Positions 37 to 56,702 of a stretch of DNA of 56,702 nt are shown piece by piece. Origin of the DNA: Enterobacteria phage 9g. Below the pieces are notes generated by a model, which was not told where the DNA came from, did no database searches, and saw nothing but the letters and a program-made list of their open reading frames with translations. The stretch lies in the sequence record NC_024146.1; one strand, 5' to 3'. Within the stretch, counting starts at the first letter, position 1; each line of letters opens with the position of its first letter. Both the position numbers and the translations under genes were made by a program.

Positions 37-2009
37 TAAGCGGCGTATGCGAGTTTTTCCAGCAATTTTTCCGCTTTAGCTATGTACACTTCGTGGTTAA
101 GATCTGGCGGTAACTGATCAGTCAGTTCCATCATTGGTTTACCCCCTGCTGTCTTACCAACACGCCCACCACTCTTAACTATCAGTATTTCAGGTACTTC
201 TTCTTTTGTATAGTACCAGCGAACAACCTTACCTAACGGCTCACTATTCCACGCAGCTCCACCGTTAGCTGTCTTGATACAAACAAACTTACGAATATCC
301 TGACACTCTGTGATAGTTTTAGCAATTGGTGTACCGTCACGGAGAAGATTAACCACAGCATCCATAATGATTTCACCTTCTGCGTTTTTAGCAAGGCCTG
401 TCTCAGCGAACCAACCTTTACGCTTGGCTTTACCATCTGCCTTGATTGCGACGTAGTTGTTAACGTTTGCGGAGTTAAGGCGCAGGTACTGGTTCAACTC
501 CATTTCAAAGCCAGTTGTTTCTTCCCACCACTTAATGATATCTGTCATTAATTGCTTCTTAGCTTTGCAAGGCTTAATAACAATACCGTCCGTGTTAGCA
601 CTGACAACCTGAATACCGTTAAGCTCTAGTGTTTCAATAAGCATGAGCAGAGCTAACTGACCTGTGAGCGTAGTCTGAATAATAAGGTGCGGTGCATACA
701 GAATAGAGAACGGTGAACCGAACTTACCATAAGAACCGTTAATAACGATCTTAAGAGTTTGTGCGGTCTTATCGTCATGAGCCATCTTAGCTGCAATACG
801 TCGTTCTACGATCTTAACGAAGATATCTATAAAGCGCGGGCCCAGGTGCTCAGGATACAGTTGCTGGTTAATGATACAGATCGGGTAGTATGACGTTACG
901 TCAGCGTCCCACATCTCTTCATCTTCAGACGGTACAATCTCCATTAACTCTTCGCACGAGTGCAGACCACCGATACCCATGTTGTAAGTTGTCTGATTGA
1001 TTGTAAACTTCAAAGAGTTCATGGTTGATGGTTGCTTAATTTTACCGTCTTCTGCAACTCGGAAGTAACTATCAAGCACAACCTGAAATACGGACTTCAT
1101 TAGTGGCGTTTGGAAACCTAACCACACTGGAGGATTGTACTTAAAGGTTCTGCCAACTTCCACCATACCCTTCTGTGGTACGAAGCCCAGCATTTCCTTC
1201 ATTTCATGGCGGATTACAGCTTCTGCGATCTGTGCATCGGATTTAGAGCGAAGGTCTACTTTGTACTCCTCACTCATAATCTCACGTAGATGGATCTGCT
1301 CTTCCAGTGAGTTAAACAGAGCCATTGTTGTATCAAGGTCGTTAATGCAGTAGAAGCGCACAATAGCAATTTGTTCTACGGATAACGCCCAATGTGGTGG
1401 GAATGGTAAGTCCTGGAGCTTCTGCATGTGCATACGGCCGCCATACAACTTCAACGAACCGAAGCCAGGAGCCACCTCTTGAACGTCAATGTGGTCAATC
1501 CAAAACTGTTTTACACCAAAGCTGTTAAGAATGTCCCACGGAGCCCACTCTTCCTGGATCATCCTGTCACTTGCTTCTTTTAGCTTGTCAACAGTCAAAC
1601 CAGCAATGGCAAGGAATGTCATCGTATTATCGTAGTTTCTTGAGTTGAAACCAACGGTACGAAAGTTCTTCATTATCCATTCATATTTTTCCGTGTCAAG
1701 TGTCTGACCGGCAGTCATTTCTAGATAATAAACCTTGCCAAACTTAACCCCTTTAAACGCCACAAGAAAATAGTTCTTATAGCATTCTATATCGTATACG
1801 AACGTTTCTTGTGCAAAATACATTTCCACTAATTCACCGTCTGTCATACGCGGATCGTTAGCTGCAAAACGCATTGCTACATCAAGACCTGGAAGGTAGT
1901 CCGGACGCTCCCATACCCTTTCAACTGGTTGACGTTTTACTTTCTGTTTCTTTTCTTTCTTAGTGGGAGGTAAATCCTCCCAAAAGAAACCAATAGCATC
2001 TTTTCTCAT
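36..2009 (-). CDS. DNA polymerase, family B-like, with 3'-5' exonuclease motifs
   Basis: 657 aa. Exo I-like YDIECY; PolB motif A DVTSYYPICII (DxxSLYPS type); motif B KIVINGSYGKFG (KxxxNSxYG type); motif C-like SANTDG. ATG at 2009 overlaps the stop of the upstream gene (ATGA). Confidence 0.85.
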   Translation of the reverse strand: MRKDAIGFFWEDLPPTKKEKKQKVKRQPVERVWERPDYLPGLDVAMRFAANDPRMTDGELVEMYFAQETFVYDIECYKNYFLVAFKGVKFGKVYYLEMTAGQTLDTEKYEWIMKNFRTVGFNSRNYDNTMTFLAIAGLTVDKLKEASDRMIQEEWAPWDILNSFGVKQFWIDHIDVQEVAPGFGSLKLYGGRMHMQKLQDLPFPPHWALSVEQIAIVRFYCINDLDTTMALFNSLEEQIHLREIMSEEYKVDLRSKSDAQIAEAVIRHEMKEMLGFVPQKGMVEVGRTFKYNPPVWLGFQTPLMKSVFQVVLDSYFRVAEDGKIKQPSTMNSLKFTINQTTYNMGIGGLHSCEELMEIVPSEDEEMWDADVTSYYPICIINQQLYPEHLGPRFIDIFVKIVERRIAAKMAHDDKTAQTLKIVINGSYGKFGSPFSILYAPHLIIQTTLTGQLALLMLIETLELNGIQVVSANTDGIVIKPCKAKKQLMTDIIKWWEETTGFEMELNQYLRLNSANVNNYVAIKADGKAKRKGWFAETGLAKNAEGEIIMDAVVNLLRDGTPIAKTITECQDIRKFVCIKTANGGAAWNSEPLGKVVRWYYTKEEVPEILIVKSGGRVGKTAGGKPMMELTDQLPPDLNHEVYIAKAEKLLEKLAYAA

Positions 2010-2998
2010 AGACGAAATCCTACAATTACCCCACGTAGATTTTCACCATAAAAAATAATAGGAGTTGAAAGACCCCTTTCGTCCTTTTCATTGAAACGCG
2101 AAGCATCCCAATCTGTCGCAAGTCCTTTCAACTGCATAATGAGATCTATATTATACACGCCAATTGACTTAGATTCACGGAACATTGCACTAGCACCATC
2201 CAGCTCGTTGTAATGTGTGCGTACAACACCATTTTCCATGTAAATACGCCCATCCCGCTCACAGAACGGTTTTATCTTTTCTAAGCAATTAAAAAGCTCA
2301 GTATCAAGCGTATAGACGTTGGCCCCATTTTCTGTACGCTCAATTATCTTATCAATGTTAGGCCACTTTAATTCCAGCAATTGTGTACGCAACCAGCAAC
2401 CGTCTTCGTAGTGAAATGTCATACTGGTATCTGTACATTGAATTCTTACTGGTGGCTTTTTAATACGCAATAATTCTTTGATGGCCATACGTGGCACAAC
2501 ACAATCTACAGGGAATACAGCACCGAACCAATACTGTATAATACTAGCGTTGTTGGTCGCGTACATGCTGCCCTGTTTTACCAGCACGCCGCAAGACCAC
2601 GGGCGGGAAGCATCGTCGCTTATAAACGGCGTTACACGGCTTAAACCGTTGAGAAAAAGCTGACCGTCTATTTCGTGAATTGTTCCTTCTGGCTCTACGT
2701 GTGCAGTTGGTTTCTGAAGAGTATCCACACTGACCTTAAAGCCACCAGACTTAATGCTCAACTTACCATTCGCTAACATTGTCATCTGTACAGCTTCGTC
2801 ACATGCTGCAATAGCCTTGAGCATTGGTTCAGCTTTAGGAGTACAGTCAATATTTAGTGGTACTGGACTACATAATGAAATAGTTCCGTTAAACCCGCGC
2901 ACAGTACCATCAACAATACGGAAGTGAGTTAAACCTTCCTGAAGTTCTTTCTTAGCTACAGAACCCTGAACAAACTTTAAAGCATCAAGTAAATCCAT
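2006..2998 (-). CDS. Putative beta-sliding-clamp-like processivity factor
   Basis: 330 aa. Motif layout resembles DnaN: N-terminal L..ALKFVQGSV, then GKLSIKSGGFKVSVDTL (cf. DnaN ...RSGRSRFSLSTL) and ATNNASII (cf. ATDGHRLA). Translationally coupled to the polymerase. Call is from remembered motif pattern, not a search. Confidence 0.45.
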   Translation of the reverse strand: MDLLDALKFVQGSVAKKELQEGLTHFRIVDGTVRGFNGTISLCSPVPLNIDCTPKAEPMLKAIAACDEAVQMTMLANGKLSIKSGGFKVSVDTLQKPTAHVEPEGTIHEIDGQLFLNGLSRVTPFISDDASRPWSCGVLVKQGSMYATNNASIIQYWFGAVFPVDCVVPRMAIKELLRIKKPPVRIQCTDTSMTFHYEDGCWLRTQLLELKWPNIDKIIERTENGANVYTLDTELFNCLEKIKPFCERDGRIYMENGVVRTHYNELDGASAMFRESKSIGVYNIDLIMQLKGLATDWDASRFNEKDERGLSTPIIFYGENLRGVIVGFRL

Positions 2999-3006
2999 AA
3001 GTAACC

Positions 3007-3960
3007 TTATTCGTCAAATAAATCCTGGAGACGTTCGTTGAACTTCCCATTGTGGTTAGCAAGAATCATAGCGTTGACCACACCATACGCCCATAAATTG
3101 TATGCAGCGCGTGATTCGTATATGGTTGAAAGTCGTTCGTATGTGAAACCTGACTCCTCTAAGTAGCGCAGAACATTATTCTGTTCTATTTCTGAAAGAT
3201 TACAGATGTGCTGCCCTTGATAGTGGCGTGACGGTGACTTTTCAGATACCTGCATTGGGCCCCACTTAGGAGTTTCAATAGCACCAAACGCCGCAGATTG
3301 AATCCAGGAGGATGAGTCACAGGAGTACCACGGGTAACGCTCCATAAGCGGGCGGGACGTAATACCAAAACCATGAACTTTAATCTTAGCGCGTCCACTA
3401 CCGTCCACAAGGTGCTTATCCCATACCCTGTCCAACCATACCTGAAGTTGTTGTGTACTCGCTCCAACAAGACCACCGAGCGTGATATACTCATAGTTTC
3501 GCACATAATGGTCCAGGTATTCAAAAGGTTCACCGGCGTGGAAGCATGGTAAAGGTCTTACACCTCTGGCTTCCATCTCTTCCTGGTTGCGCCACGTTTG
3601 AAGTGGATCACCAATACCATCGAGTACAGAAGCCATAAGCGAACCATCTTCCACACGGATGATATCTATGTTTCGTTGGATGTAATCACAGTATTCTTTA
3701 ACCGATAACGTAACTCCCAAAGTGTAAGCTGAGAACGCTCCGGAGTCGAGGAATATCTTGGCCCCATCGGCACGCATGGCATCAACATAGGATTGCTTTC
3801 CAACGTAGTGCCAGGATTCGAGAATGTTTGGAATATTTTCGACAACACGTTTTTCTTGTTCGTTGAGTTTGACATAGCGGTTCATTCCTGGTTTATAGCT
3901 GTTCGTATATACGGCAGCCATATAAATCTGAAAGGTATAGTTGATATCTTGTCTGTGCAT
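3007..3960 (-). CDS. dpdA: DpdA-like DNA-guanine transglycosylase (TGT superfamily) for 7-deazaguanine insertion into DNA
   Basis: 317 aa. TGT-like IFLDSGAFSAY (cf. TDSGGFQ) and overall TGT-like length; sits at the 3' end of the folE-queD-queC-queE operon. ATG at 3960 preceded by GGTGA. Confidence 0.75.
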   Translation of the reverse strand: MHRQDINYTFQIYMAAVYTNSYKPGMNRYVKLNEQEKRVVENIPNILESWHYVGKQSYVDAMRADGAKIFLDSGAFSAYTLGVTLSVKEYCDYIQRNIDIIRVEDGSLMASVLDGIGDPLQTWRNQEEMEARGVRPLPCFHAGEPFEYLDHYVRNYEYITLGGLVGASTQQLQVWLDRVWDKHLVDGSGRAKIKVHGFGITSRPLMERYPWYSCDSSSWIQSAAFGAIETPKWGPMQVSEKSPSRHYQGQHICNLSEIEQNNVLRYLEESGFTYERLSTIYESRAAYNLWAYGVVNAMILANHNGKFNERLQDLFDE

Positions 3961-4029
3961 TGTTCACCTAACAAATAAGCGCCCGTAGGCGCTTATTATA
4001 TTAAAGATAATGTATGATTCGCAAATCAG

Positions 4030-4644
4030 TTACTTTTTACACGCTTCAAGAAATTCCCGACGCCATGTGTCACCAGTCACGTCCGGTAATACACCATCAC
4101 CCAATGCAGTACGTCCGCGGAATGCTTTAGTGATGGTTGAGCTTCCGCATACCTGTTTAACACCGCGCGACTCCATGCACATATGTTTTGCATCGATGTA
4201 GACACACACAGCTTTCGGGTCTAAGTGTTCCACGATAGCATCCGCAATCTGATTAGTCAGACGTTCTTGGACTTGCAAACGTCGAGCGAAAGCATCAACT
4301 ACCCGAGATAACTTGCTGAGACCGACGATTTTTCCATTTGGGACATACCCAACCACTGCATGACCAATAATAGGAGCCATGTGATGCTCACAATGACTAT
4401 ATACAGGGATATCACGGACGATGACCATTTCATCACAGTTTTCCCCACCATCTTCAAATGTCTTGAACAGGGATGCGATATCAACAGAATAACCCCCGAA
4501 CCATGTAGCATAAGCCTTAGCTACACGATCTGGAGTTTCTACTAGACCTTCACGCAAGTCATCGCCACCTTCAATCAACTTTAAAATCTTTTCAATACTG
4601 TGCGAAATTTCTGCTCTGTTTGTCATCTTTGTAAATTCATTCAT
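4030..4644 (-). CDS. folE: GTP cyclohydrolase I (FolE)
   Basis: Clear FolE core: ETPDRVAKAY, VIVRDIPVYSHCEHHMAPI, GLSKLSRVVDAFARRLQVQERLT. The longest ORF begins with TTG at 4680 and overlaps queD; the ATG at 4644 with an upstream AAGGA is preferred (4626 is an alternative). Confidence 0.88.
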   Translation of the reverse strand: MNEFTKMTNRAEISHSIEKILKLIEGGDDLREGLVETPDRVAKAYATWFGGYSVDIASLFKTFEDGGENCDEMVIVRDIPVYSHCEHHMAPIIGHAVVGYVPNGKIVGLSKLSRVVDAFARRLQVQERLTNQIADAIVEHLDPKAVCVYIDAKHMCMESRGVKQVCGSSTITKAFRGRTALGDGVLPDVTGDTWRREFLEACKK

Positions 4645-4670
4645 GGTTTGCAGTTTCCTTGTGTGGTCAA

Positions 4671-5204
4671 TTATTTGCAATAGTTAACATGGCATTTGGA
4701 CGTTTCTTCAATGGTGCATTCTACCAATTCAACACCATATTGGTCAAGTAGTTGAGGACCAATTACGTCAACCATATATGCAGCTAAGTTTTCCGCAGTT
4801 GGGTTGAATGGTAAAGCTACCAAAGAATTAAAGAAAGGATCGTAATCTTCATCCGTCACTAAATTGTTCTCACGTGCAAACTTAGTTGATGCAACAACAA
4901 TGAGCGAATTAATCATGCTGTCTTGTTCCCAATGCAGGAACTTATGATCCCAATTATCTTCCAACCACTGGCAGAGCGTAGTTTTAACCACACTAAAGTC
5001 GATAACCCGACCTACGTCGTCCAGCGAACCTTCTAGAGCAAATCCACTTACAGACTTAACGTAACCTTCCGACAATGTTTTCTTTGGTGCAACTTTAAAA
5101 TGGAACTTATAGTTGTGACCATGAAGATGACGACATTTGCTTTCATGCCCTACAACACGATGCCCAGCGCAAATCTCATGTGAACGAATAACAGTGTAAC
5201 CCAT
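4671..5204 (-). CDS. queD: 6-carboxy-5,6,7,8-tetrahydropterin synthase (QueD / PTPS family)
   Basis: 177 aa. N-terminal CAGHRVVGHESKCRHLHGHNYKF (Cx..HGH zinc/catalytic motif of QueD/PTPS). Confidence 0.85.
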   Translation of the reverse strand: MGYTVIRSHEICAGHRVVGHESKCRHLHGHNYKFHFKVAPKKTLSEGYVKSVSGFALEGSLDDVGRVIDFSVVKTTLCQWLEDNWDHKFLHWEQDSMINSLIVVASTKFARENNLVTDEDYDPFFNSLVALPFNPTAENLAAYMVDVIGPQLLDQYGVELVECTIEETSKCHVNYCK

Positions 5205-5206
5205 TT

Positions 5207-6622
5207 TTATTCCTCGTTTTCGTATTTAATAACTTCTTGTGCGTTATTAATATTAAACGCAGTCCGGCGCATCATGCAAGGGCCGCAAGTACCGCAATGC
5301 AAATTCCCGTTACGGTAACAACTCCAGGTGTGCTCCAACGGGGCCCCTAAACGCAGACCTGTAGCGACAATTTCGTGCTTCATTAAGTTACCTACAGGCA
5401 TGAGCACTTCAACGCGCTTACCATCCCCTACAGCGAACGGTAACACCTGATTAAAGCGATTAATAAACTCAGGTTCGTTGTCCGGATAGGCTCCAGCTTC
5501 TTCTAGGTTGTTACCAAGAACAATATAGTCGAAACCGTTAGCTTCTGCGTATGCAGTAGCAACAGAAAGCATCACAAGGTTACGAGCTGGAACCCATTCA
5601 TGCGCAAACTCAGCGCCTTCTTCACCGCCAGCGATTGCAGCATCTTGATCAAATAATGGGCTATCCTTCTTATCATAAATTGGGATTGGAAATTCAATTA
5701 ATGGAACCCCCATCACTTCCGCAATCTTACGAATAGCATACAGCTCATTAGTTTCTGCACGACAACCATATTGGAAGTTAATCAGAGTAACATCTAAACC
5801 ATTGGACTTACACATTTGAGCTGCTACTGTGCTGTCCATACCACCACTGGCGACAACTAACGCGCGTTGAGTCTGCTTATTTGGAATAAGATCAACTTCA
5901 TTGCATACATCAGTTGATGTAACCACATTACATGAATAAGGCTTCAGCATCTGCTTAATAGCGCGGTTGGGTAGCATGTCTTCCTGGCTGGCGAAATACA
6001 TACCAGTATCAGTCTTACCAATCCAGATTGGACGATAATTACATGCTGTAAACACGCATCCCGGAAAGGAATCATGTGTTGCAAGGATTGCGAAGCTACC
6101 TTTCAATTTGCGAACAACTTCATGAAACACACTGTACAGGTAATTAAAGTCAGACAAACACATTTCATCTGCTGAAAGTGTACATTCTGCTAACTGTTCG
6201 ACAATCGCAGCACTATCAATCTTAGTCTGCAGGGCATAGGTACGAATGTCTTTATCGTTCGCAATAGTACCGTTATGAACAATAGTCCAATCATCCATGT
6301 GATACGGTTGCTGGTCCCACTCATTCTTGTCAACAATCCACTCTGTAGTCGGTTCAGCGCGAGCGTTACCAATCATTGTGAAGCTACCAATAGCTCCAGC
6401 ATGAGATGCAATGCGCCCAACTTTAACAAGACGTTCCAGTGACGTTTCCTTACCGACACTAACGATACGTTGCGGGTGCATACTGTGGTCACCATGCGTA
6501 AAGCGTACACCAAGACCATCACGACCACGCTTGATACTGGCTTTAATAAGATCCTCAATGTCGTTACGGATAATAAGACTTTCAGGTTGACCGTTAGTAA
6601 TAACACCAAAGATAGAGCACAT
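5207..6622 (-). CDS. queC: Gat-QueC fusion: class II (Ntn) glutamine amidotransferase domain fused to a QueC-like 7-cyano-7-deazaguanine synthase domain
   Basis: N-terminus after the start Met is CSIFGV (Cys2 nucleophile, as in AsnB/GlmS-type GATases). C-terminal half has the PP-loop SGGMDS, VPARN, and the zinc motif CGTCGPC of QueC. Start set to the internal ATG at 6620-6622 so that Cys is residue 2; it lies 1 nt after the upstream gene's stop. Confidence 0.85.
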   Translation of the reverse strand: MCSIFGVITNGQPESLIIRNDIEDLIKASIKRGRDGLGVRFTHGDHSMHPQRIVSVGKETSLERLVKVGRIASHAGAIGSFTMIGNARAEPTTEWIVDKNEWDQQPYHMDDWTIVHNGTIANDKDIRTYALQTKIDSAAIVEQLAECTLSADEMCLSDFNYLYSVFHEVVRKLKGSFAILATHDSFPGCVFTACNYRPIWIGKTDTGMYFASQEDMLPNRAIKQMLKPYSCNVVTSTDVCNEVDLIPNKQTQRALVVASGGMDSTVAAQMCKSNGLDVTLINFQYGCRAETNELYAIRKIAEVMGVPLIEFPIPIYDKKDSPLFDQDAAIAGGEEGAEFAHEWVPARNLVMLSVATAYAEANGFDYIVLGNNLEEAGAYPDNEPEFINRFNQVLPFAVGDGKRVEVLMPVGNLMKHEIVATGLRLGAPLEHTWSCYRNGNLHCGTCGPCMMRRTAFNINNAQEVIKYENEE

Positions 6623-6623
6623 A

Positions 6624-7385
6624 TTATTTACCTTCCTTAACCATTTCAATTTCACGCTCAACGGATGCAATAATATCGTTGAGGTCTTCCAGTACGTCTT
6701 TATGACCGCGCTCACCCGCACACAGCACCTTCTTCAGTGCATGTTGCATGGGCCCACTGGTTACATTGAATGCTTTAATTACGTCGTACACGTCAACCCA
6801 TACATCAATTTCGATTGGGCTACCGTTAATGTCATGGGATTCAAAAGTTTTAATTTTGCGCATATATTTATTTGGACGTGGAGCTTTAATCTCCTGGATA
6901 CAACCATTGTCGATAAACGTTTCTTTAATGAATACTTCAGGATTGCCTTCTTTGTCATGATCAACGTTAAAGACATTCGTAAGTAGATCGTCCATGATAC
7001 TTGTTAATTTATGAGTAGACGTTGTGTACTTCATGGTATTCGCTTCCGCTTCCTCTGCTGCTTTCTGACTTCTTCTGGCAGAAGTATTGATACGCCATTT
7101 GTAGAGTGCATTACGTGGAGGTGTTACATGCGTGTTGTAGACCGTCTTTAAGTTCATAAGATCGTGTCCATCCATACCTTCAACAAAGACAGTGAGTGCA
7201 GGACAACTATCGTTCAGAACATCCACCAAATATCCTTCCCGAATTACAGATGCAAGAGCTGCATGTGACGCAGCTTGAGAAACTGTGGTTACATAATGTT
7301 TCACAAATCCGTCTTCATCAAACAGACACTGGTTCAACACATTTTCTGGAACAATTTCACCGAGTAATTGAACGTACTTATTCAT
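6624..7385 (-). CDS. Hypothetical protein embedded in the 7-deazaguanine operon
   Basis: 253 aa, ATG at 7385 with AAGGT upstream; tightly packed between queE and gat-queC. No motif recognised by eye. Confidence 0.6.
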   Translation of the reverse strand: MNKYVQLLGEIVPENVLNQCLFDEDGFVKHYVTTVSQAASHAALASVIREGYLVDVLNDSCPALTVFVEGMDGHDLMNLKTVYNTHVTPPRNALYKWRINTSARRSQKAAEEAEANTMKYTTSTHKLTSIMDDLLTNVFNVDHDKEGNPEVFIKETFIDNGCIQEIKAPRPNKYMRKIKTFESHDINGSPIEIDVWVDVYDVIKAFNVTSGPMQHALKKVLCAGERGHKDVLEDLNDIIASVEREIEMVKEGK

Positions 7386-49017: not shown

Positions 49018-52000
49018 ATGCCACCAGCAATAATTGGAGCTGTAGTTGCTATCGGTGCAGCGGCTGGGGCAGCGGCAGGTATTCTCCCAGCCACTGCCGC
49101 GCTTGTGATTGGTATTGCTGCCAGTGCCGCTGGAGCTCTACTTACAAAAACTCAGAGCTTTAACTTTGACTCCTATACAGCTCAGAGTGAGCGTAAACAG
49201 GTTATTCGTGCTGCTGCTGCATCCCGGACAGTGATTTATGGGACGACTGTATCTAGTGGTGTACTTGTATTTGCAGAAGAAGAACCGGGAGAACAGGATA
49301 CCAATAAACATGGTGAGAACCATGAAAAGCTGACGTTGGTTCTTGCATTGGCAGGCCATCCGCTGACAGGCGTAGGACAAGTGTGGTTAGGTGATGACGC
49401 TATCGAGACTTTTGGTGATAAAGCGAAGTGTATAATACATAATAATCCTACTACCGTTAGTCAGGATATGTTGAATCGTTGCCCATCGTGGAAAAGGGAC
49501 ATGATTGGTAAAGGTATTTGCTGGATGCAATTAAACCTTGTGTTCGATTCTGAAAAATTCCCGTCTGGTCTACCTAACGTTAAATGCCTTAAGAAAGGTC
49601 GTAAGGTATTAGATCCTAGAACTGGTAATATGGTATTTAGCAATAACGCAGCTTTAGTCATTCTGGATTACTTACGAGTGTACTTAAAACGCTCTGATGA
49701 CGCAATTCTTTGGGACCAGTTCAAAGAAGCTGCTAATATCTGTGATGAAAGTGTAAAGAACGCGGACAACACATACGAACCTCGTTACACCATAAATGGT
49801 GAGTTTGATATTGATGAAGCTCCCTCTAAGATTTTGGAGGATATGCTTGACGCTTGTGGTGGCGAGTTAACTTACATTGGCGGTAAACATGGTATTCTTG
49901 TTGGTGCATATTATGGTCCACCTGAATTAACACTGGATACAAGTTGTATTGCTGGTGACATTAAAATCACACCTGAAACAGCTTTCAAAGAACGCACAAA
50001 TACAATCACTGGTACTTATATAGATCCTCTGCAAAATTATCAGGAAGCTGACTTCCCTCCTGTAAGTGTCGCAGAATGGATACAACAAGACGGCCAAGAG
50101 ATCACACAGGACGTAGACTATCGTTTTGTAACAAGCCCATACCAGGCACAACGTCTGTCTAACTTAACATTGAAACGCAAACGTATTGGCCGTTCCATAG
50201 AGATACCATGTAACATGCGTGGGTATCGTTTCCGTCCAGGTATGTACGTTTACGTTGACATTCCTAACATTGGAATGAACAAAGTAGAGATGCGTGTTAT
50301 TAAGTGGCAGTTTGATCCGAAAGGTGGTGTTACTGTAACTGTACGCCAAGACTTCCCGGCCTTATGGGACGATGCAATTGGCAAACCTGTAGAGCGTCCA
50401 GATTTAGTGGATTTGCCTACTGGTGGCGCTATGCAACCTCAGAATTTGCAGTATGAAGTCTTGCAGATCAGCGACGTTGTACAAGGTGTGCTGTCGTGGC
50501 AAAATATAATGGCTGTAGCCTACAACAACGTAGTAATTAAGAAAGATGGTACTACCGTATTGACGGTGCAAGTACCGGGCCAGAGCACGCGGATTACAGG
50601 GCTTATTCGCGGCGCTTATACAGCACATGTGAAAGCTGTAGCGTATACCGGCGCAACAAGTCCAGAAGCGTATCTTGAATTCAATATTCAAGCACCTTCC
50701 GCTCCTACGTCTGTTGAAGTAACGCAAGGCTACTTCGCAGTGACATTGAAACCAAAATCTGCGGATCTAGCGAACGTTAGTACACAATATGATTTCTGGA
50801 CGTCCGGTGAAACAAGATTACCATCCACTGCTGTAGACGTGGTAGAGAGACAAGCCACTCGTGCTGGTATGGGTACAACGTGGACTTCAGAAGGGTTGCT
50901 CAATGACCACACTTATTACTGGTATGTGCGGGCAATTAATGCTTTTGGTTCTTCTGCATTTGTAGAGGTGGCTGCAAGATGCTTCACAGATGCTGCTGGC
51001 CTTATTCCGCAGATTGACACAGAGTTCAAAGGTACTAACACCTATAAAGAACTTATGGCTGAGATTGGAAGCGTCAGCGATGGTGTCAAGAGTTATGTGG
51101 ACGACCAAATTGAAACCTCTGAAGGGCGCTTAACTCAAACAATAGATACAGTGCAACAATCTGTAGTTCTTGTTGACGGTAAAGTGCAGCAACAAGGCGT
51201 CACAATCAATGAACAGGGGCAGTTAATAGATGCTCAGGGTAAGTTGATTCAAACAAACGGCCAACAGATTAATGTGGTCAAAGCTACCGTACAGGAAGTC
51301 AGTAAGTCCGTTGTAGATCTTGAAGGTAACGTTAACGCTCAGTGGGGCGCCAAGATCCAGGTGGATAATAAAGGCCAAAAATACGTTGCCGGTATTCAGT
51401 TAGGTATGGAAGGTTCCGGTGGAGCTATCCAATCTTACTTTATGGTCAACGCCAACAACTTTGCTATCTATAACCCAACTGACAGTACAGCGGATTTAGC
51501 ATTTGCAGTTAAGAACGGTCAAGTGTTCATGAAGGCAACGTTCATTGAGAACGGGTCTATTGATAACGCTAAGATTGGTAACTATATTCAATCTAACAAC
51601 TATGTAGCTGGTTCCGCAGGTTGGAAGTTGAATAAAGCTGGTGACGCTGAATTCAATAACGTAACTGTCAGAGGTGTGGTATATGCTAGTGGCGGTAGAT
51701 TTACTGGTGAGATACAAGCAACAAGCGGTAAGTTCAAAGGAACTGTAGAAGCGCAAAGTTTTATCGGGGACATTGCAAATATGCACACAGGGACGAATGT
51801 GAGTCGGACTAATGATGGATCTTTAGAAAAGGTAATGACTTATACGGATTCATCCAGTTCTGGGCACGCAAGACACGTCTGTGTTATAGCAAACGTTAAA
51901 GGTAATGGTGCGGGAATAATCAATATCAACGGTAGTGAGAGTGGTTCATCCGTGCAAGACACAGAGAGACTTATCATGCATTCTGCGGTTGTGACAGGAC

Positions 52001-52107
52001 CAAACGTGACAGTTCGTATTAAAGTGTCCGCTCAAAATGGCAGGGGTGCGTCCATTTCTTCTCCTACTATCATAGTATCACACGGATCTGGATCATTCAC
52101 AGGTTAA
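49018..52107 (+). CDS. Tail tip/host specificity protein (lambda gpJ-like) with N-terminal gpI-like hydrophobic Gly/Ala-rich segment
   Basis: 1029 aa. YYWYVRAINAFGSSAFVEV and KYVAGIQLGMEGSGG...NNFAIYNP resemble lambda J (YYFYIRSVNTVGKSAFVEA; HYVAGIGLSMED...NRIAFIDP) as remembered. N-terminus begins MPPAIIGAVVAIGAAAGAAAGIL. Confidence 0.85.
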   Translation: MPPAIIGAVVAIGAAAGAAAGILPATAALVIGIAASAAGALLTKTQSFNFDSYTAQSERKQVIRAAAASRTVIYGTTVSSGVLVFAEEEPGEQDTNKHGENHEKLTLVLALAGHPLTGVGQVWLGDDAIETFGDKAKCIIHNNPTTVSQDMLNRCPSWKRDMIGKGICWMQLNLVFDSEKFPSGLPNVKCLKKGRKVLDPRTGNMVFSNNAALVILDYLRVYLKRSDDAILWDQFKEAANICDESVKNADNTYEPRYTINGEFDIDEAPSKILEDMLDACGGELTYIGGKHGILVGAYYGPPELTLDTSCIAGDIKITPETAFKERTNTITGTYIDPLQNYQEADFPPVSVAEWIQQDGQEITQDVDYRFVTSPYQAQRLSNLTLKRKRIGRSIEIPCNMRGYRFRPGMYVYVDIPNIGMNKVEMRVIKWQFDPKGGVTVTVRQDFPALWDDAIGKPVERPDLVDLPTGGAMQPQNLQYEVLQISDVVQGVLSWQNIMAVAYNNVVIKKDGTTVLTVQVPGQSTRITGLIRGAYTAHVKAVAYTGATSPEAYLEFNIQAPSAPTSVEVTQGYFAVTLKPKSADLANVSTQYDFWTSGETRLPSTAVDVVERQATRAGMGTTWTSEGLLNDHTYYWYVRAINAFGSSAFVEVAARCFTDAAGLIPQIDTEFKGTNTYKELMAEIGSVSDGVKSYVDDQIETSEGRLTQTIDTVQQSVVLVDGKVQQQGVTINEQGQLIDAQGKLIQTNGQQINVVKATVQEVSKSVVDLEGNVNAQWGAKIQVDNKGQKYVAGIQLGMEGSGGAIQSYFMVNANNFAIYNPTDSTADLAFAVKNGQVFMKATFIENGSIDNAKIGNYIQSNNYVAGSAGWKLNKAGDAEFNNVTVRGVVYASGGRFTGEIQATSGKFKGTVEAQSFIGDIANMHTGTNVSRTNDGSLEKVMTYTDSSSSGHARHVCVIANVKGNGAGIININGSESGSSVQDTERLIMHSAVVTGPNVTVRIKVSAQNGRGASISSPTIIVSHGSGSFTG

Positions 52108-52110
52108 ACT

Positions 52111-52134
52111 ATTAACCCCTCGAAAGAGGGGTTA
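52111..52134. terminator. Perfect 10-bp palindromic hairpin between convergent genes
   Basis: ttaacccctc GAAA gaggggttaa; sits between the J-like gene stop (52107) and the minus-strand lipoprotein stop (52139). Confidence 0.5.
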
Positions 52135-52138
52135 ATGT

Positions 52139-52372
52139 TTAGTAGTCTATAACACAGTTTGAAGGGCTCCCAATTCTTCGGTATTCGTGAGCAATCTCCT
52201 GGCACCATTGCCCCGTCATTGGGAGCTTTTCGGTATCGTAAATTAAAGAACCGTTATCGTCCCGATCCAATGGTTTTGGGATAACGCCGGAATTCGGTTT
52301 ACCGGTATCTAAGCCATTACCACATGCGGTGAGGGATAAACAAAATGTGAGCATAATCAGAGCGCGTTTCAT
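52139..52372 (-). CDS. Small lipoprotein, candidate Llp/Cor-like superinfection-exclusion factor
   Basis: 77 aa. Signal peptide and lipobox [17 protein letters not shown]; AAGGAG 6 nt upstream; the only minus-strand gene in the structural block, between tip and fibre genes. Confidence 0.65.
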
Positions 52373-52453
52373 TGGGACTCCTTTGTGTTGTTGACAGGGT
52401 TGAATTTCAATATACTTGTTGTGTTGAGTAAGCTAAATAAAGCGAGAAACATT

Positions 52454-55400
52454 ATGGCAATTCGTTTACATGGTATTCTAGTTGATGGATTGAATAAACC
52501 AATCGTCAATGCAAACGTCTTCTTACTTGCACGAAGCAATACTATTGTAGTTCTAGGTGGAAGTAAAGCGGTATTTAAGACTGATTCGCAAGGTGCTTAC
52601 GACGTCACAGTCAACGCCGGGCATTATGTGGTTATCATTGGACCGGAAGGTAAGGAACCGTATAAAGCGGGTGACATTGTAATCTATGCAGATAGCCAGA
52701 ACGGTTCACTTAACGCATATCTTACTAAATGGGCTCCAGAAGAAACTACACCTGAAATACTTCATGAGATAAAGCAACTGGTGGCTAATTCTGAGCAATT
52801 CGCATTGCAGGCGTCTGAATCCGCTGCTAATGCTAAGAAGAGTGAGCTTAACGCGGAGACAAGTAAAAACTCTGCTGCAACGGATGCAGCGTCAGCTCTG
52901 CTATCAAAACAGGAATCTGCCGCTAGTGCGTCTTCCGCATTGCAATCCAAGAACGCTGCGGCTGGTTCTGCTACATCAGCTCAACAATCTCTTACTGCTG
53001 TGCAAGGACTCAAAGTTGAAGTCCAACAATTAAAAACCGACACGCAGCATATTAAAGAAGAGGGCGTCGCTGAAGTAACAGCTCTCAAAAATGCTGCAAC
53101 TACAGCGGCTAACAATGCTAAAGCATCAGAAACTGCATCTGCTAATAATGCGACTTTGGCTGATACTAAAGCAAAGGAAGCGTCTGTAAGTGCAACCACT
53201 GCTGATCAAGCGAAAGTGGCTGCTGAGGCAGCAAAGGACGCATCCGAAGCAAGTGCGGTTGAATCTGCTACTTCTGCTGGTGAATCGCAGACCTCAGCTA
53301 ATGCAGCTAAGGCAAGCGAAACGGTTGCAACACAGAAGGCAGCTTCGGCCTCTACGTCTGAAACTAATGCGGCAGCTTCCGCTCAGACTGCGACTAACAA
53401 AGCTGGTGAGTCTGCCGCTAGTGCTACCGCAGCTAAGGCAAGCGAAACTAATGCTAAGACGTCAGAAACTAATGCTGGTACATCAGCTGGAAGATCTGAG
53501 TCCGCTGCTTTGCGCTCAGAAGCTGCTGCTGAACGTGCGGAAGAGATTGCTGGTGCAATTGGTCTTGAAGATGCGACTTTGACTGTTAAAGGTATCGTTC
53601 GTCTTAGCAATGATACTGACAGCACTGCTGAAGACCTGGCGGCTACACCAAAGGCTGTTAAAACAGTCATGGACGTTGCTAATACTAAAGCTCCGTCAAA
53701 TAGTCCTGTTCTAACTGGTGTACCAACGGCACCAACTCCAGCACCTGAAGTTAATAACAATCAGATTGCTACAACTCAGTTTGTACACCAAATTATAAGC
53801 GCACTTATTGGTGATGCACCAGACGCGTTAAACACTCTGAAAGAGTTAGCTGACGCTCTTGGTGATGATCCGAACTTTGCTACAACGATGACCACACTTA
53901 TTAACAGTAAGTTGGCCAAAGATCAGAACGGTGCTGACATTCCTAATAAGCAACTGTTTATTGATAACGTTGGTTTACGTGAGACTGTTAACTTAGCTCT
54001 CGGTGCATTGCAGAAGAATCAGAACGGTGCGGATATACCGGATAAAGGCGTCTTCCTTAATAACATCAATGCTGCCAGCAAGACGGATATGGCCGCTAAA
54101 CGTGGAATGAAGTTTTCGCGTGTAGATGCACCAGCGGGAGTTGAAGCAGACAAGTTTTATCCTGTGGTCATTCGTCGTTGTTCTGGATTCAACAGTGAAT
54201 TAGCATCAAGGGTAACGATAAGTACAGATTCAAGAATGTCAAGCCATAGGATGAACAACTGTGATTTCAATGGTTTTGTGATGCCTGGTGGATGGACCGA
54301 CCGCGGACGATATGCTTATGGAATGTTCCACGCATATACTGCAAATGAGCGTGCTATTCATTCTATTATGATGGGTGACTCGGATGATGATCTGTGCTCT
54401 GTGTTCTATGTTGAAGGTGAAGCGTTCCCTATCTCTGTATATGTAGAAGAAGGCTTATTTGTTGTTGTACCGTCCGCCGACTATGTTGTCGGACAAACGA
54501 CTTACAAATGGGGTGCTACAGACCCTAGAACAGAATGTGTGGCCGCTAAAACTATACTTGATTTCTGCAATGGTAGAGGATTCTATAGTTCGCACGCACT
54601 CCTCACAAATGCAGATATTAGCGGTGCGAAAATCTACGCCAACGGTGAAATCGTAGCTCGCGGTGAGAATCAAGTTCGTATGATTGGTGGGGACTACGGT
54701 GCATTATGGCGCAATGACGGTGCCATGACCTATCTCTTATTTACCGCTAAAGGTGATCAATACGGTGGTTGGAACGATTTAAGACCATTTATGATTGATA
54801 ACGCTACTGGTGAGTTTACCATCGGCACTAAATTGAACGCCAATCAAGGTGTGAATGGTAATGCGTCAAGTGCTACGAAGTTACAAACAGCGCGTAAAAT
54901 TGGTGGCGCCTCATTCGATGGTACTGCTGACGTCAATCTTCCAGGTGTTAACATTCAGGGTAATCAGAACACAACTGGTAACGCGGCAACTGCCACCAAA
55001 CTACAGACAGCAATAAAAATATCTGGTGTTTCGTTTGATGGTTCTACTGATATCACTTTAACCGCCGGGCATGTAGATGCTTTTGCCAGAAGGGCAACGG
55101 GTACATATTCCGATGCGGATGGTGGCGTTCCCTGGAATTCCGAATCAGGCGCTTACAATGTCACCCGCTCTGCCGACAGCTATATATTGGTTAACTTCTA
55201 TATCGGAGTCGGAAGTTGCCGGACCCTGCAGATGAAGGCGCATCACAGAAATGGAGGTCTGTTCTACCGTTCCTCAAGAGATGGCTACGGTTTCGAAGAA
55301 GATTGGGACCAAATTTACACTAAAAAGAATCCACCTCCGGCTGGTGAAAGTTTACCTGTAGGTGTTCCATTACCGTGGCCTACGGATACACCTCCGTCCG

Positions 55401-56089
55401 GTTATATTGTAATGCAGGGTCAATCCTTCGATAAAGCTGCATACCCGAAACTGGCGGCTGCATACCCAACGGGCGTGCTTCCAGACATGCGTGGTCAAAC
55501 TATCAAAGGTAAACCAGCAAGCGGTCGCGACGTACTTTCTACGGAAGATGACGGTGTGAAGTCACATACTCACACTGCGTCTACTGCATCTGTCGATCTT
55601 GGAAGCAAGACAACTTCCAGCTTTGACTATGGTACTAAGACAAGTTCGAGTTTTGACTATGGCACCAAATCTGCTGCTTCAGCTGGTGCGCATACGCATA
55701 GTCTGAGCGGTTCAACAGGCTCAGCTGGTGCTCATGCCCACACAGGTGGTTTAAGGATGAACAGTGGTGGTTGGGACCAATACGGATCAATAACCGTTCC
55801 GGCAAGTGTATCCACGGTTAAAGGAACCAACCAGCAGGGAGCTGGTTATTGTGCGAAAACAGACAGTCAGGGCAACCACACTCACTCTTTATCTGGTACT
55901 GCTGCTTCGGCTGGAGCTCATACACATAACGTGGCCGTTGGTGCTCATACGCATACTGTAGGTATTGGTGCTCATACCCATACAGTCGCTTTAGGTTCAC
56001 ATAGCCACGGTGTTACAGTTAACGCAACTGGTAACACGGAGAACACCGTTAAGAACGTTGCATTCAACTATATTGTGAGGGCTGCTTAA
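52454..56089 (+). CDS. Side/long tail fibre protein with C-terminal His-rich HxH repeats
   Basis: First ATG at 52454 (GTG at 52385 possible). Ala/Ser-rich helical repeat region; C-terminal [53 protein letters not shown] repeats; a Tfa-like gene follows. Confidence 0.85.
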
Positions 56090-56667
56090 TGTCTTTTGAA
56101 ATGAGTAATGAAGACCAGACTGTAACCGTGTATGACTACTCCAGGGATACGGGCGAATATGTGGGAACCCGTGAGGCGTATGTGGTAGCCAACACAGGTC
56201 TTCCAGCATGTTGTACTGATATGGAGCCTCCAGTGGCTCCAGAAAATCATGTGGCAATTTTTAAAATAGACAGCCAAGTATGGATTTTACGTGAGGACCA
56301 TCGAGGGAAAGTTGTATACGATAAAAATACAGGACTTCCTTTAGTGATAACCACTATTGGATCTCTCCCGGATAATGTGACCTTTATCGCTCCCAACGGC
56401 GAGTATATGAAGTGGAACGGTAATATGTGGGTGAACGATCCGGATGCACAACGTGCTAAGTCGGTTGCGGATGCAACACAACACAAAACAGATCTTCTTA
56501 ATTTAGCAGATTATAAAATCAGTATTCTACAAGATGCTGTGACTTATAATCTAGCTACTGACGAAGAAAGTTCGATGCTGGAATCGTGGAGAAAGTTTCG
56601 TGTACTTGTGAACCGCGTAAACGAAAACGATCCACAGAATATTATCTGGCCTGAGACTCCAGAATAA
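56089..56667 (+). CDS. Tail fibre assembly protein (Tfa-like chaperone)
   Basis: 192 aa immediately after the tail fibre gene, start overlapping its stop (TAATG); typical Tfa size and position. Confidence 0.65.
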   Translation: MSFEMSNEDQTVTVYDYSRDTGEYVGTREAYVVANTGLPACCTDMEPPVAPENHVAIFKIDSQVWILREDHRGKVVYDKNTGLPLVITTIGSLPDNVTFIAPNGEYMKWNGNMWVNDPDAQRAKSVADATQHKTDLLNLADYKISILQDAVTYNLATDEESSMLESWRKFRVLVNRVNENDPQNIIWPETPE

Positions 56668-56702
56668 GCAGAGGCAACGTACGGCATTTTGGGGCATTTT
56701 AT

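Follow-up and report, generated by a model that had tools for sequence, protein, structure and literature searches.

This analysis concerns the side tail fibre gene (stf) of Enterobacteria phage 9g and, in particular, the array of His-x-His motifs encoded at its 3′ end. Positions refer to the window, i.e., the whole 56,702-nucleotide (nt) stretch of DNA analysed (sequence record NC_024146.1; one strand, 5′ to 3′). The gene, its eight His-x-His motifs and an accompanying tandem peptide repeat, all on the plus strand and the repeats all in the stf frame, are located as follows.

52454..56089, +: side tail fibre gene stf, 1211 amino acids (aa) plus stop, an exact database match to AHN84586.1, "side tail fiber [Enterobacteria phage 9g]"
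55559-55579, +: KSHTHTA, His-x-His 1 (His codons 55565-55573)
55616-55639 and 55646-55669, +: SSFDYGTK, two copies with a 10-residue period
55685-55711, +: GAHTHSLSG, His-x-His 2 (His codons 55691-55699)
55727-55747, +: GAHAHTG, His-x-His 3 (His codons 55733-55741)
55871-55897, +: GNHTHSLSG, His-x-His 4 (His codons 55877-55885)
55913-55933, +: GAHTHNV, His-x-His 5 (His codons 55919-55927)
55940-55960, +: GAHTHTV, first of two copies, His-x-His 6 (His codons 55946-55954)
55967-55987, +: GAHTHTV, second copy, His-x-His 7 (His codons 55973-55981)
55994-56014, +: GSHSHGV, His-x-His 8 (His codons 56000-56008)

Side tail fibre gene and histidine array

The start of stf was placed at the ATG at 52454, which gives the length of the public 9g protein, rather than at the GTG at 52385 given in the program-made list of open reading frames (ORFs); the stop codon is the TAA at 56087-56089. 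Five Pfam domains were recovered in the product (phage_tail_N, Phage_fiber_2, Gp34_trimer, Collar and the Phage_fiber repeat), which also matched the tail fiber family PHROG 295 with an expect value (E) of 7e-215.

The eight His-x-His motifs lie within the last 175 residues of the protein, spanning aa 1038-1185 of 1211, and account for 16 of its 28 histidines. When the last 190 residues were shuffled, a mean of 1.26 and a maximum of six motifs were obtained, and eight or more were reached in none of 20,000 shuffles; shuffles of the whole protein averaged 0.61 and never exceeded four. The His-rich array is thus real and far beyond chance. The initial annotation had described at least seven such units and a tandem duplication of SSFDYGTK. 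Both copies of the latter were found, and all seven of the former are present in frame; the count is, however, eight, as KSHTHTA had been missed although it lies inside the interval described.

At the DNA level, the copies beneath the SSFDYGTK repeat are 30 nt long (55600-55629 and 55630-55659) and 80% identical, and a tandem array with a 27-nt unit (55912-56003), whose copies are 74-79% identical, underlies the last four His units. Internal repeats are 63-87% identical overall, and the longest exact repeat within the array is 13 nt. Across 57 homologues the His and Gly positions are invariant in the protein while their codons drift.

Homology to the needle of T4 gp37 and lambda Stf

A phmmer search of the PDB matched the C-terminal 247 aa to 2XGF, the receptor-binding tip of T4 gp37, at E = 5.8e-66 (query 56-302 to residues 27-242 of chain 2xgf_A). 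When five sequences were aligned, each of the seven T4 motifs (883, 915, 929, 966, 980, 989 and 998) paired with a His-x-His motif in 9g; 9g, lambda Stf, JenK1 and gp37 of phage ESCO47 (vB_EcoM_ESCO47, a Mosigvirus of the T-even type) each carry eight His-x-His motifs and two FDYGTK units, against seven and one in T4. Because of the 2XGF match and the pairing with the T4 motifs, the identification as a needle is supported by homology and not by mere resemblance, and the comparison with the metal-coordinating, receptor-binding tip of T4 gp37 made in the initial annotation is borne out directly. The family is large: a tblastn search with the tip matched 617 phage records, lambda-like, T4-like and P2-like phages among them, with the best matches in ESCO47 gp37 (85% over 246 residues), lambda Stf (71.5% over the last 246) and T4 gp37 (about 50%), and in an exhaustive search 1908 representatives of 50%-identity clusters matched at E ≤ 0.001.

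Seven iron ions are coordinated along the fibre axis of T4 gp37 by its seven motifs (PMC6957217, PMC11705849, PMC6563267), alanine at H929 or H931 is lethal or abolishes function (PMC6957217), and the gp37 proteins of T-even phages bear seven to nine such motifs (PMC6563267). Judged by its homology, the array is the predicted needle of the lambda Stf/T4 gp37 family with which the 9g side tail fibre ends, and by analogy with its homologues the needle would form a trimer and bind metal.

Lambda Stf resembles the 9g fibre in having an identical spacing of its His-x-His motifs (42, 14, 48, 14, 9, 9, 9), two FDYGTK units, eight motifs, an equally long tip that is 62% identical, an N-terminal phage_tail_N attachment domain and a Tfa gene directly downstream; both are side fibres of a siphovirus that stand alongside a central J-type fibre. 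They differ in that 9g is an unrelated, virulent, non-lambdoid nonagvirus (Queuovirinae), in that the 9g protein has a longer shaft (1211 aa in all) with other modules including Gp34_trimer and a segment resembling Mu S, and in that nucleotide similarity to lambda is only 71%; as 38% of tip positions differ, the receptor may differ as well. With T4 gp37, 9g shares a homologous collar, needle and tip, a conserved C-terminal strand and a chaperone gene directly downstream, whereas T4 has another spacing (32, 14, 37, 14, 9, 9) with seven sites and one FDYGTK, so that 9g has one layer more, and a tip 11 residues shorter. T4 is furthermore a myovirus with essential long fibres, whereas lambda can do without its side fibres on laboratory strains (PMC12617516). 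The closest known tip is that of ESCO47 gp37, which has the same spacing pattern; 9g thus follows the eight-site format of lambda Stf and ESCO47 rather than the T4 format.

Domain layout and predicted structure

The gp37 domains of T4 are D10 (811-881 and 1010-1026), the stem (882-931 and 960-1009) and the tip (932-959) (PMC6957217), and the limits of their 9g equivalents were mapped by alignment.

55346..55561, +: collar (D10) domain, first part, aa 965-1036 (Pfam Collar, PF07484, E = 2e-11), equivalent to T4 gp37 811-881
55562..55741, +: needle stem, descending limb, aa 1037-1096, holding His-x-His 1, the two SSFDYGTK units and His-x-His 2 and 3
55742..55858, +: tip (head) subdomain, aa 1097-1135, the presumed receptor-contact surface, equivalent to T4 932-959
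55859..56035, +: needle stem, ascending limb, aa 1136-1194, holding His-x-His 4-8 and the 27-nt tandem array
56036..56086, +: C-terminal strand of 17 residues leading back to the collar, equivalent to T4 1010-1026, with many invariant columns among homologues

Amino-acid identity in the tip is 82% to ESCO47 gp37, 62% to lambda Stf, 21-29% to JenK1 and PD328 and 11% to T4. The tip contains a single cysteine (Cys1130, in GAGYCAK; 55841-55843) that is also present in ESCO47 and is replaced by Leu in lambda Stf; in a trimer, the three Cys1130 residues could come close together.

A monomer model was produced using AlphaFold2 with an alignment of 57 sequences. The collar was its sole confident part, with predicted local distance difference test (pLDDT) values of 72-87, and matched the T4 gp12 collar weakly (1ocy, 5iv5; E = 0.1-0.2). 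The geometry of the metal sites in 9g would, by analogy, be that of 2XGF.

Matched repeat numbers in the descending and ascending limbs

If the chain runs down the needle and back up, its two limbs should stay in register, and the spacings between successive His-x-His motifs were therefore measured in homologues. In all 123 of 123 close homologues, a first spacing of 32, 42 or 52 residues (65, 55 and 3 cases, respectively) is paired with two, three or four trailing spacings of 9 residues, these counts not being independent events since the homologues share kinship. The 14-residue spacings of the close homologues are symmetric on both sides of the tip. Among the 87 parsable representatives of the 50%-identity clusters, 83 conform exactly, two carry a one-residue deletion and two lack the second motif.

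Because the three spacing states recur with many different tips, coincidence is unlikely, and so strict a match between the repeat numbers of the limbs points to a constraint of protein structure. The spacings thereby agree, as an indirect test, with a hairpin topology in which the limbs are paired and the tip is inserted between them. The SSFDYGTK duplication thus appears to be the descending partner of an extra ascending His unit. A simpler rule, by which the total number of His-x-His motifs would track the number of FDYGTK units, failed, since a class with six of the former and two of the latter exists, and the limb-by-limb spacing rule was adopted instead.

Downstream chaperone gene

The gene directly downstream of stf lies on the same strand.

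56089..56667, +: tfa, tail fibre assembly chaperone of 192 aa, an exact database match to the 9g "tail fiber assembly protein" AHN84587.1

The two genes overlap by one base (TAATG), the last of the stf stop codon being the first of the tfa ATG. The tfa product belongs to the Caudo_TAP family by both profile and similarity: it matches Pfam PF02413 at E = 5e-32 (111 bits against a cut-off of 22) and PHROG 105 at E = 2e-74, and shows 44% identity to lambda Tfa (E = 1e-63), 29% to the ESCO47 chaperone and 27% to T4 gp38. Its C-terminus matches Mu gpU (PDB 5YVQ) at E = 5.5e-9, and its PD328 counterpart is 93% identical in amino acids. In Pfam and PHROG it matches only Caudo_TAP and tail fibre assembly families and no gp38 adhesin of the T2/S16 type, and the fibre end itself is of the T4/lambda type. 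As in its homologues, folding of the needle probably depends on this chaperone.

One member of the 90%-identity cluster of 9g Tfa is filed under Sulfoacidibacillus thermotolerans on a contig of 2,204 bp, probably through coliphage contamination, and several carry a Shigella sonnei or Shigella boydii label and sit on contigs of about 58 kb, which are probably nonagvirus genomes in isolate assemblies.

Mosaicism of the fibre and exchange of the tip

The first 25 kb of 9g are 96% identical to the nonagvirus JenK1, and stf is 90-94% identical in nucleotides to its nonagvirus kin over most of its length, two gaps excepted. Across the collar and the C-terminus, nucleotide identity is 93-98% to JenK1 and HdK1 and 67-76% to ESCO47; across the tip and His-x-His 4-5 it is 33-59% to JenK1 and HdK1 and 93-97% to ESCO47. 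The region of ESCO47-like sequence is delimited as follows.

~55632..55975, +: recombinant patch of about 345 bp that extends from the second FDYGTK unit across the tip as far as His-x-His 6, like Mosigvirus (ESCO47) gp37, with JenK1-like flanks

At sites that tell JenK1 from ESCO47, more than 140 consecutive informative positions within the patch are ESCO47-like, with few exceptions, and 9g and ESCO47 share exact tracts of 84, 59 and 36 nt. The left switch, from JenK1-like to ESCO47-like sequence, falls between 55618 and 55631 in the first FDYGTK copy; the right switch back falls in 55961-55978 at His box 7, where a 16-nt tract common to both parental types coincides with the crossover. The likeness to ESCO47 is restricted to about 55632-55975; ESCO47 has a gp38-type chaperone, and the rest of its genome is unrelated. 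Both phages were isolated from horse faeces or dung (PMC4276943 for 9g), and the shared source type fits a recent exchange between their lineages.

The side fibres of JenK1, HdK1, HdSG1 and PD328 are encoded by the same gene at the same locus as 9g stf, and these five nonagviruses carry three tip types on one eight-site scaffold: a 53-residue spacing across the tip in JenK1, HdK1 and HdSG1, a 37-residue spacing in PD328 and a 48-residue spacing in 9g. The comparison among related phages that the initial annotation had named as a check thereby shows a differing tip patch on a shared scaffold. Its suggestion that the repeat DNA may favour recombination-driven switching of the tip is supported, with one qualification: the ESCO47-like patch, its crossovers in the repeats and the three tips speak for switching, but the repeats within the gene are too diverged to serve as substrates for one another. 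Because internal exact identity does not exceed 13 nt, it is the conservation of the boxes between phages that matters, and not their repetition within the gene. Duplications of, and swaps between, conserved motifs in T-even g37 were reportedly described by Tetart et al. in 1996 and 1998. The ends of T4 g37 and g38 derive from a lambda-like source (PMC3157838).

The annotations of JenK1, HdK1 and HdSG1 show frameshifts that split stf and/or tfa (in locus numbering, 6805-7382, 1501-5167 and 1501-5798, respectively), while both genes are intact in 9g and PD328. Side fibres not needed on laboratory hosts could have been lost in this way, as in lambda PaPa, or the splits could be sequencing errors.

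A second patch that diverges from the JenK1-type kin occupies 55013-55246/55279. The segment 54938-55574 is about 80% identical in nucleotides to side-fibre genes of lambdoid phages (PhiR30_1, Turner and mEp332), and residues just upstream of the collar match the Mu fibre protein S (8ju3, E = 1.6e-14). The shaft, too, is mosaic. In some nonagviruses, such as Bas19 (ChristophMerian), the lateral fibre (634 aa, locus 3656-5557) is much shorter and unrelated and no tfa is present at the locus, homology with 9g resuming only in the last 42 nt of the 9g genome sequence; the whole stf-tfa module is therefore an exchangeable cassette within the genus.

Receptor and neighbouring genes

The Stf of Ur-lambda, which is homologous to gp37, binds OmpC and speeds adsorption (PMC12617516), the Gifsy-1 Stf has been compared with this OmpC-targeting fibre (PMC12312913), and the T4 tip binds OmpC and lipopolysaccharide (LPS) (PMC6957217). 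All known hosts of 9g are without O-antigen, and its infection includes an unexplained transient phase of attachment and detachment in the first minutes; the paper that reported the 9g genome says nothing on the fibre tip (PMC4276943). Rough hosts and transient attachment are consistent with reversible binding to a porin or to the LPS core, which O-antigen would mask, and by analogy with the characterised fibres the chance that the 9g tip recognises OmpC and/or the LPS core is roughly even or better. No glycan-binding or depolymerase domain was found among the Pfam hits of the stf product.

A 77-aa ORF on the minus strand (52139-52372), placed after the J-like central fibre gene (49018-52107) and before stf, carries a lipoprotein signal (LSLTAC) and matches PHROG 12984, "lipoprotein", at E = 8e-54. 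Its position suggests a possible role in receptor-masking superinfection exclusion of the kind known from T5 Llp or Cor. A scan of 51900-56702 for promoters and terminators gave no more matches than chance. Small ORFs on the opposite strand or in other frames within 55635-56000 were dismissed, as nothing supported them and the coding frame that contains them is strongly conserved.

Discussion

We regard it as very probable that the region is the receptor-binding end of the 9g side tail fibre, a needle of the lambda Stf/T4 gp37 family, built and used according to the following scheme. Three chains would form the collar, from which each would run down the axis, make a small tip and return up, giving a needle of six strands. 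At eight axial levels, the His-x-His motifs of all three chains would point inward and offer six imidazoles to each metal ion (iron in T4 gp37), and these ions would staple the needle together. The 10-residue FDYGTK units of the descending limb, which carry no His, would pair with the 9-residue G-x-H-x-H-x-V-x-(I/L) units of the ascending one, and this spatial pairing would lock the copy numbers of the two. Folding would need Tfa, encoded directly downstream and apparently coupled to stf in translation. The 39-residue tip between His-x-His 3 and 4 would make a reversible first contact, its most probable target being OmpC and/or the LPS core of rough Escherichia coli, after which the central J-like fibre would find the terminal receptor. 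The conserved boxes that flank the tip would supply homology for recombination between phages, and through them the 9g tip would have been exchanged with a lineage of T-even-type myoviruses.

A more specific version is put forward tentatively, with a chance that we would set somewhat short of even: that the needle is built from length-quantised, paired layers in matched numbers, each descending 10-residue FDYGTK unit lying against an ascending 9-residue GxHxH unit and both limbs bearing 14-residue His-x-His units, that its boxes are sites of tip crossover between siphoviruses and T-even phages, and that 9g gained its present tip in the horse gut and directs it at OmpC or the LPS core and not at O-antigen.

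Several observations weigh against parts of this interpretation. The needle was poorly predicted by the monomer model (pLDDT 50-64), in which the extended form was not modelled, and although 2xgf_A was the sole significant Foldseek match of that model (E = 4.7e-15), the template modelling (TM) score was only 0.33-0.37. A single chain of three copies connected through 25-residue Gly-Ser linkers, modelled with ten likewise tripled homologues, gave a mean pLDDT of 33, and the model was unusable. The His-x-His site of T4 gp12 holds zinc, and the identity of the metal is not readable from sequence. The left crossover of the patch matches no long tract of identity between present-day JenK1 and ESCO47. 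Tip identities of 62% to lambda Stf and 11% to T4 leave the receptor uncertain, and the authors of the 9g and BASEL papers guessed O-antigen as the target of nonagvirus lateral fibres (PMC4276943, PMC8594841).

That the side fibre recognises O-antigen, as proposed for nonagviruses and T5-like phages, and hence a specific polysaccharide instead of OmpC or the LPS core, is the alternative with published advocates. The 9g authors suggest that the side fibres may recognise some O-antigen (PMC4276943), and the BASEL paper proposes O-antigen as the primary receptor of Nonagvirus lateral fibres and describes the locus as highly variable (PMC8594841), with which the three tip variants among sister phages agree. 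The distal 250 aa are, however, fully covered by collar, needle and tip and bring no glycan-binding or depolymerase domain with them in Pfam, the characterised members of the tip family bind OmpC and/or the LPS core (PMC6957217, PMC12617516), the 9g tip shares well over half of its residues with that of lambda Stf, and all known 9g hosts are rough (PMC4276943). Since Bas19-like nonagviruses have an unrelated fibre, a statement about the whole genus need not fit the fibre of 9g. We consider an O-antigen receptor unlikely, with a small but real chance of being correct. The specificity might also be carried by Tfa, which would then stay on the fibre end, as do assembly proteins of the Mu/P2 type and gp38 of the T2/S16 type, and contact the receptor itself. 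The C-terminus of 9g Tfa does resemble Mu gpU, and gp38 of S16 and T2 stays on gp37, as the probable de facto receptor-binding protein in S16 and as what is described as the adhesin in T2-type phages (PMC6563267, PMC3157838). Against this, the 9g protein is a Caudo_TAP chaperone and not a gp38-type adhesin, receptor contacts in T4 map to the gp37 tip itself (PMC6957217), ESCO47 combines nearly the same tip (82% identical in amino acids) with a chaperone only 29% identical to 9g Tfa, and the recombinant patch exchanged the tip and not tfa. Nearly identical tips beside differing chaperones, and a patch that spares tfa, imply that specificity travels with the tip, and a Tfa adhesin is therefore improbable.

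Two further alternatives bear on the repeats themselves. They could act mainly at the DNA level, as recombination hot spots for a tip cassette, with the encoded histidines secondary, and both crossovers of the ESCO47-like patch do fall in repeats, the right one at the 16-nt tract common to the parental types. Exact internal repeats of at most 13 nt and an overall identity of 63-87% are nevertheless poor grounds for such a role, the His and Gly positions stay invariant across the 57 homologues despite codon drift, repeat numbers on the two limbs are strictly coupled, and T4 gp37 loses its function without the His-x-His histidines that were tested (PMC6957217). We judge this explanation very improbable, and recombination at the boxes is better regarded as a side effect of their being conserved. 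That the array is a chance or low-complexity His-rich tail with no defined structure is suggested only by its repetitive look; this was refuted by the shuffle test, which never reached eight motifs, and by the 2XGF match, and the spacing is moreover kept in hundreds of proteins, leaving a probability that is practically nil.

Most of what is described here for the needle is already known: the motif, the structure, the binding of metal, the chaperone and the swapping of tips were reported for T4 and lambda in work dating from the 1980s-2010s, and the gene is annotated in the published 9g genome. The additions are small and consist of the count of eight sites instead of seven, the matched-layer rule and the mapping of a patch of about 345 bp shared with a myovirus. 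The published guess at the receptor class, O-antigen, probably needs correcting. The lateral fibre of 9g, JenK1, HdK1 and PD328 would then be read, contrary to the literature on the genus, as a porin or LPS-core binder of the lambda Stf type, and a tip directed at OmpC or the LPS core, if confirmed, would explain both why 9g infects only rough strains and its transient attachment and detachment. The matched-layer rule and the crossovers mapped to the FDYGTK duplication and to His box 7 mark graft points at which the host range might be engineered without breaking the needle, and the near-identical tip of ESCO47, a phage from the same type of sample, would represent a clean and recent case of exchange between phage families.

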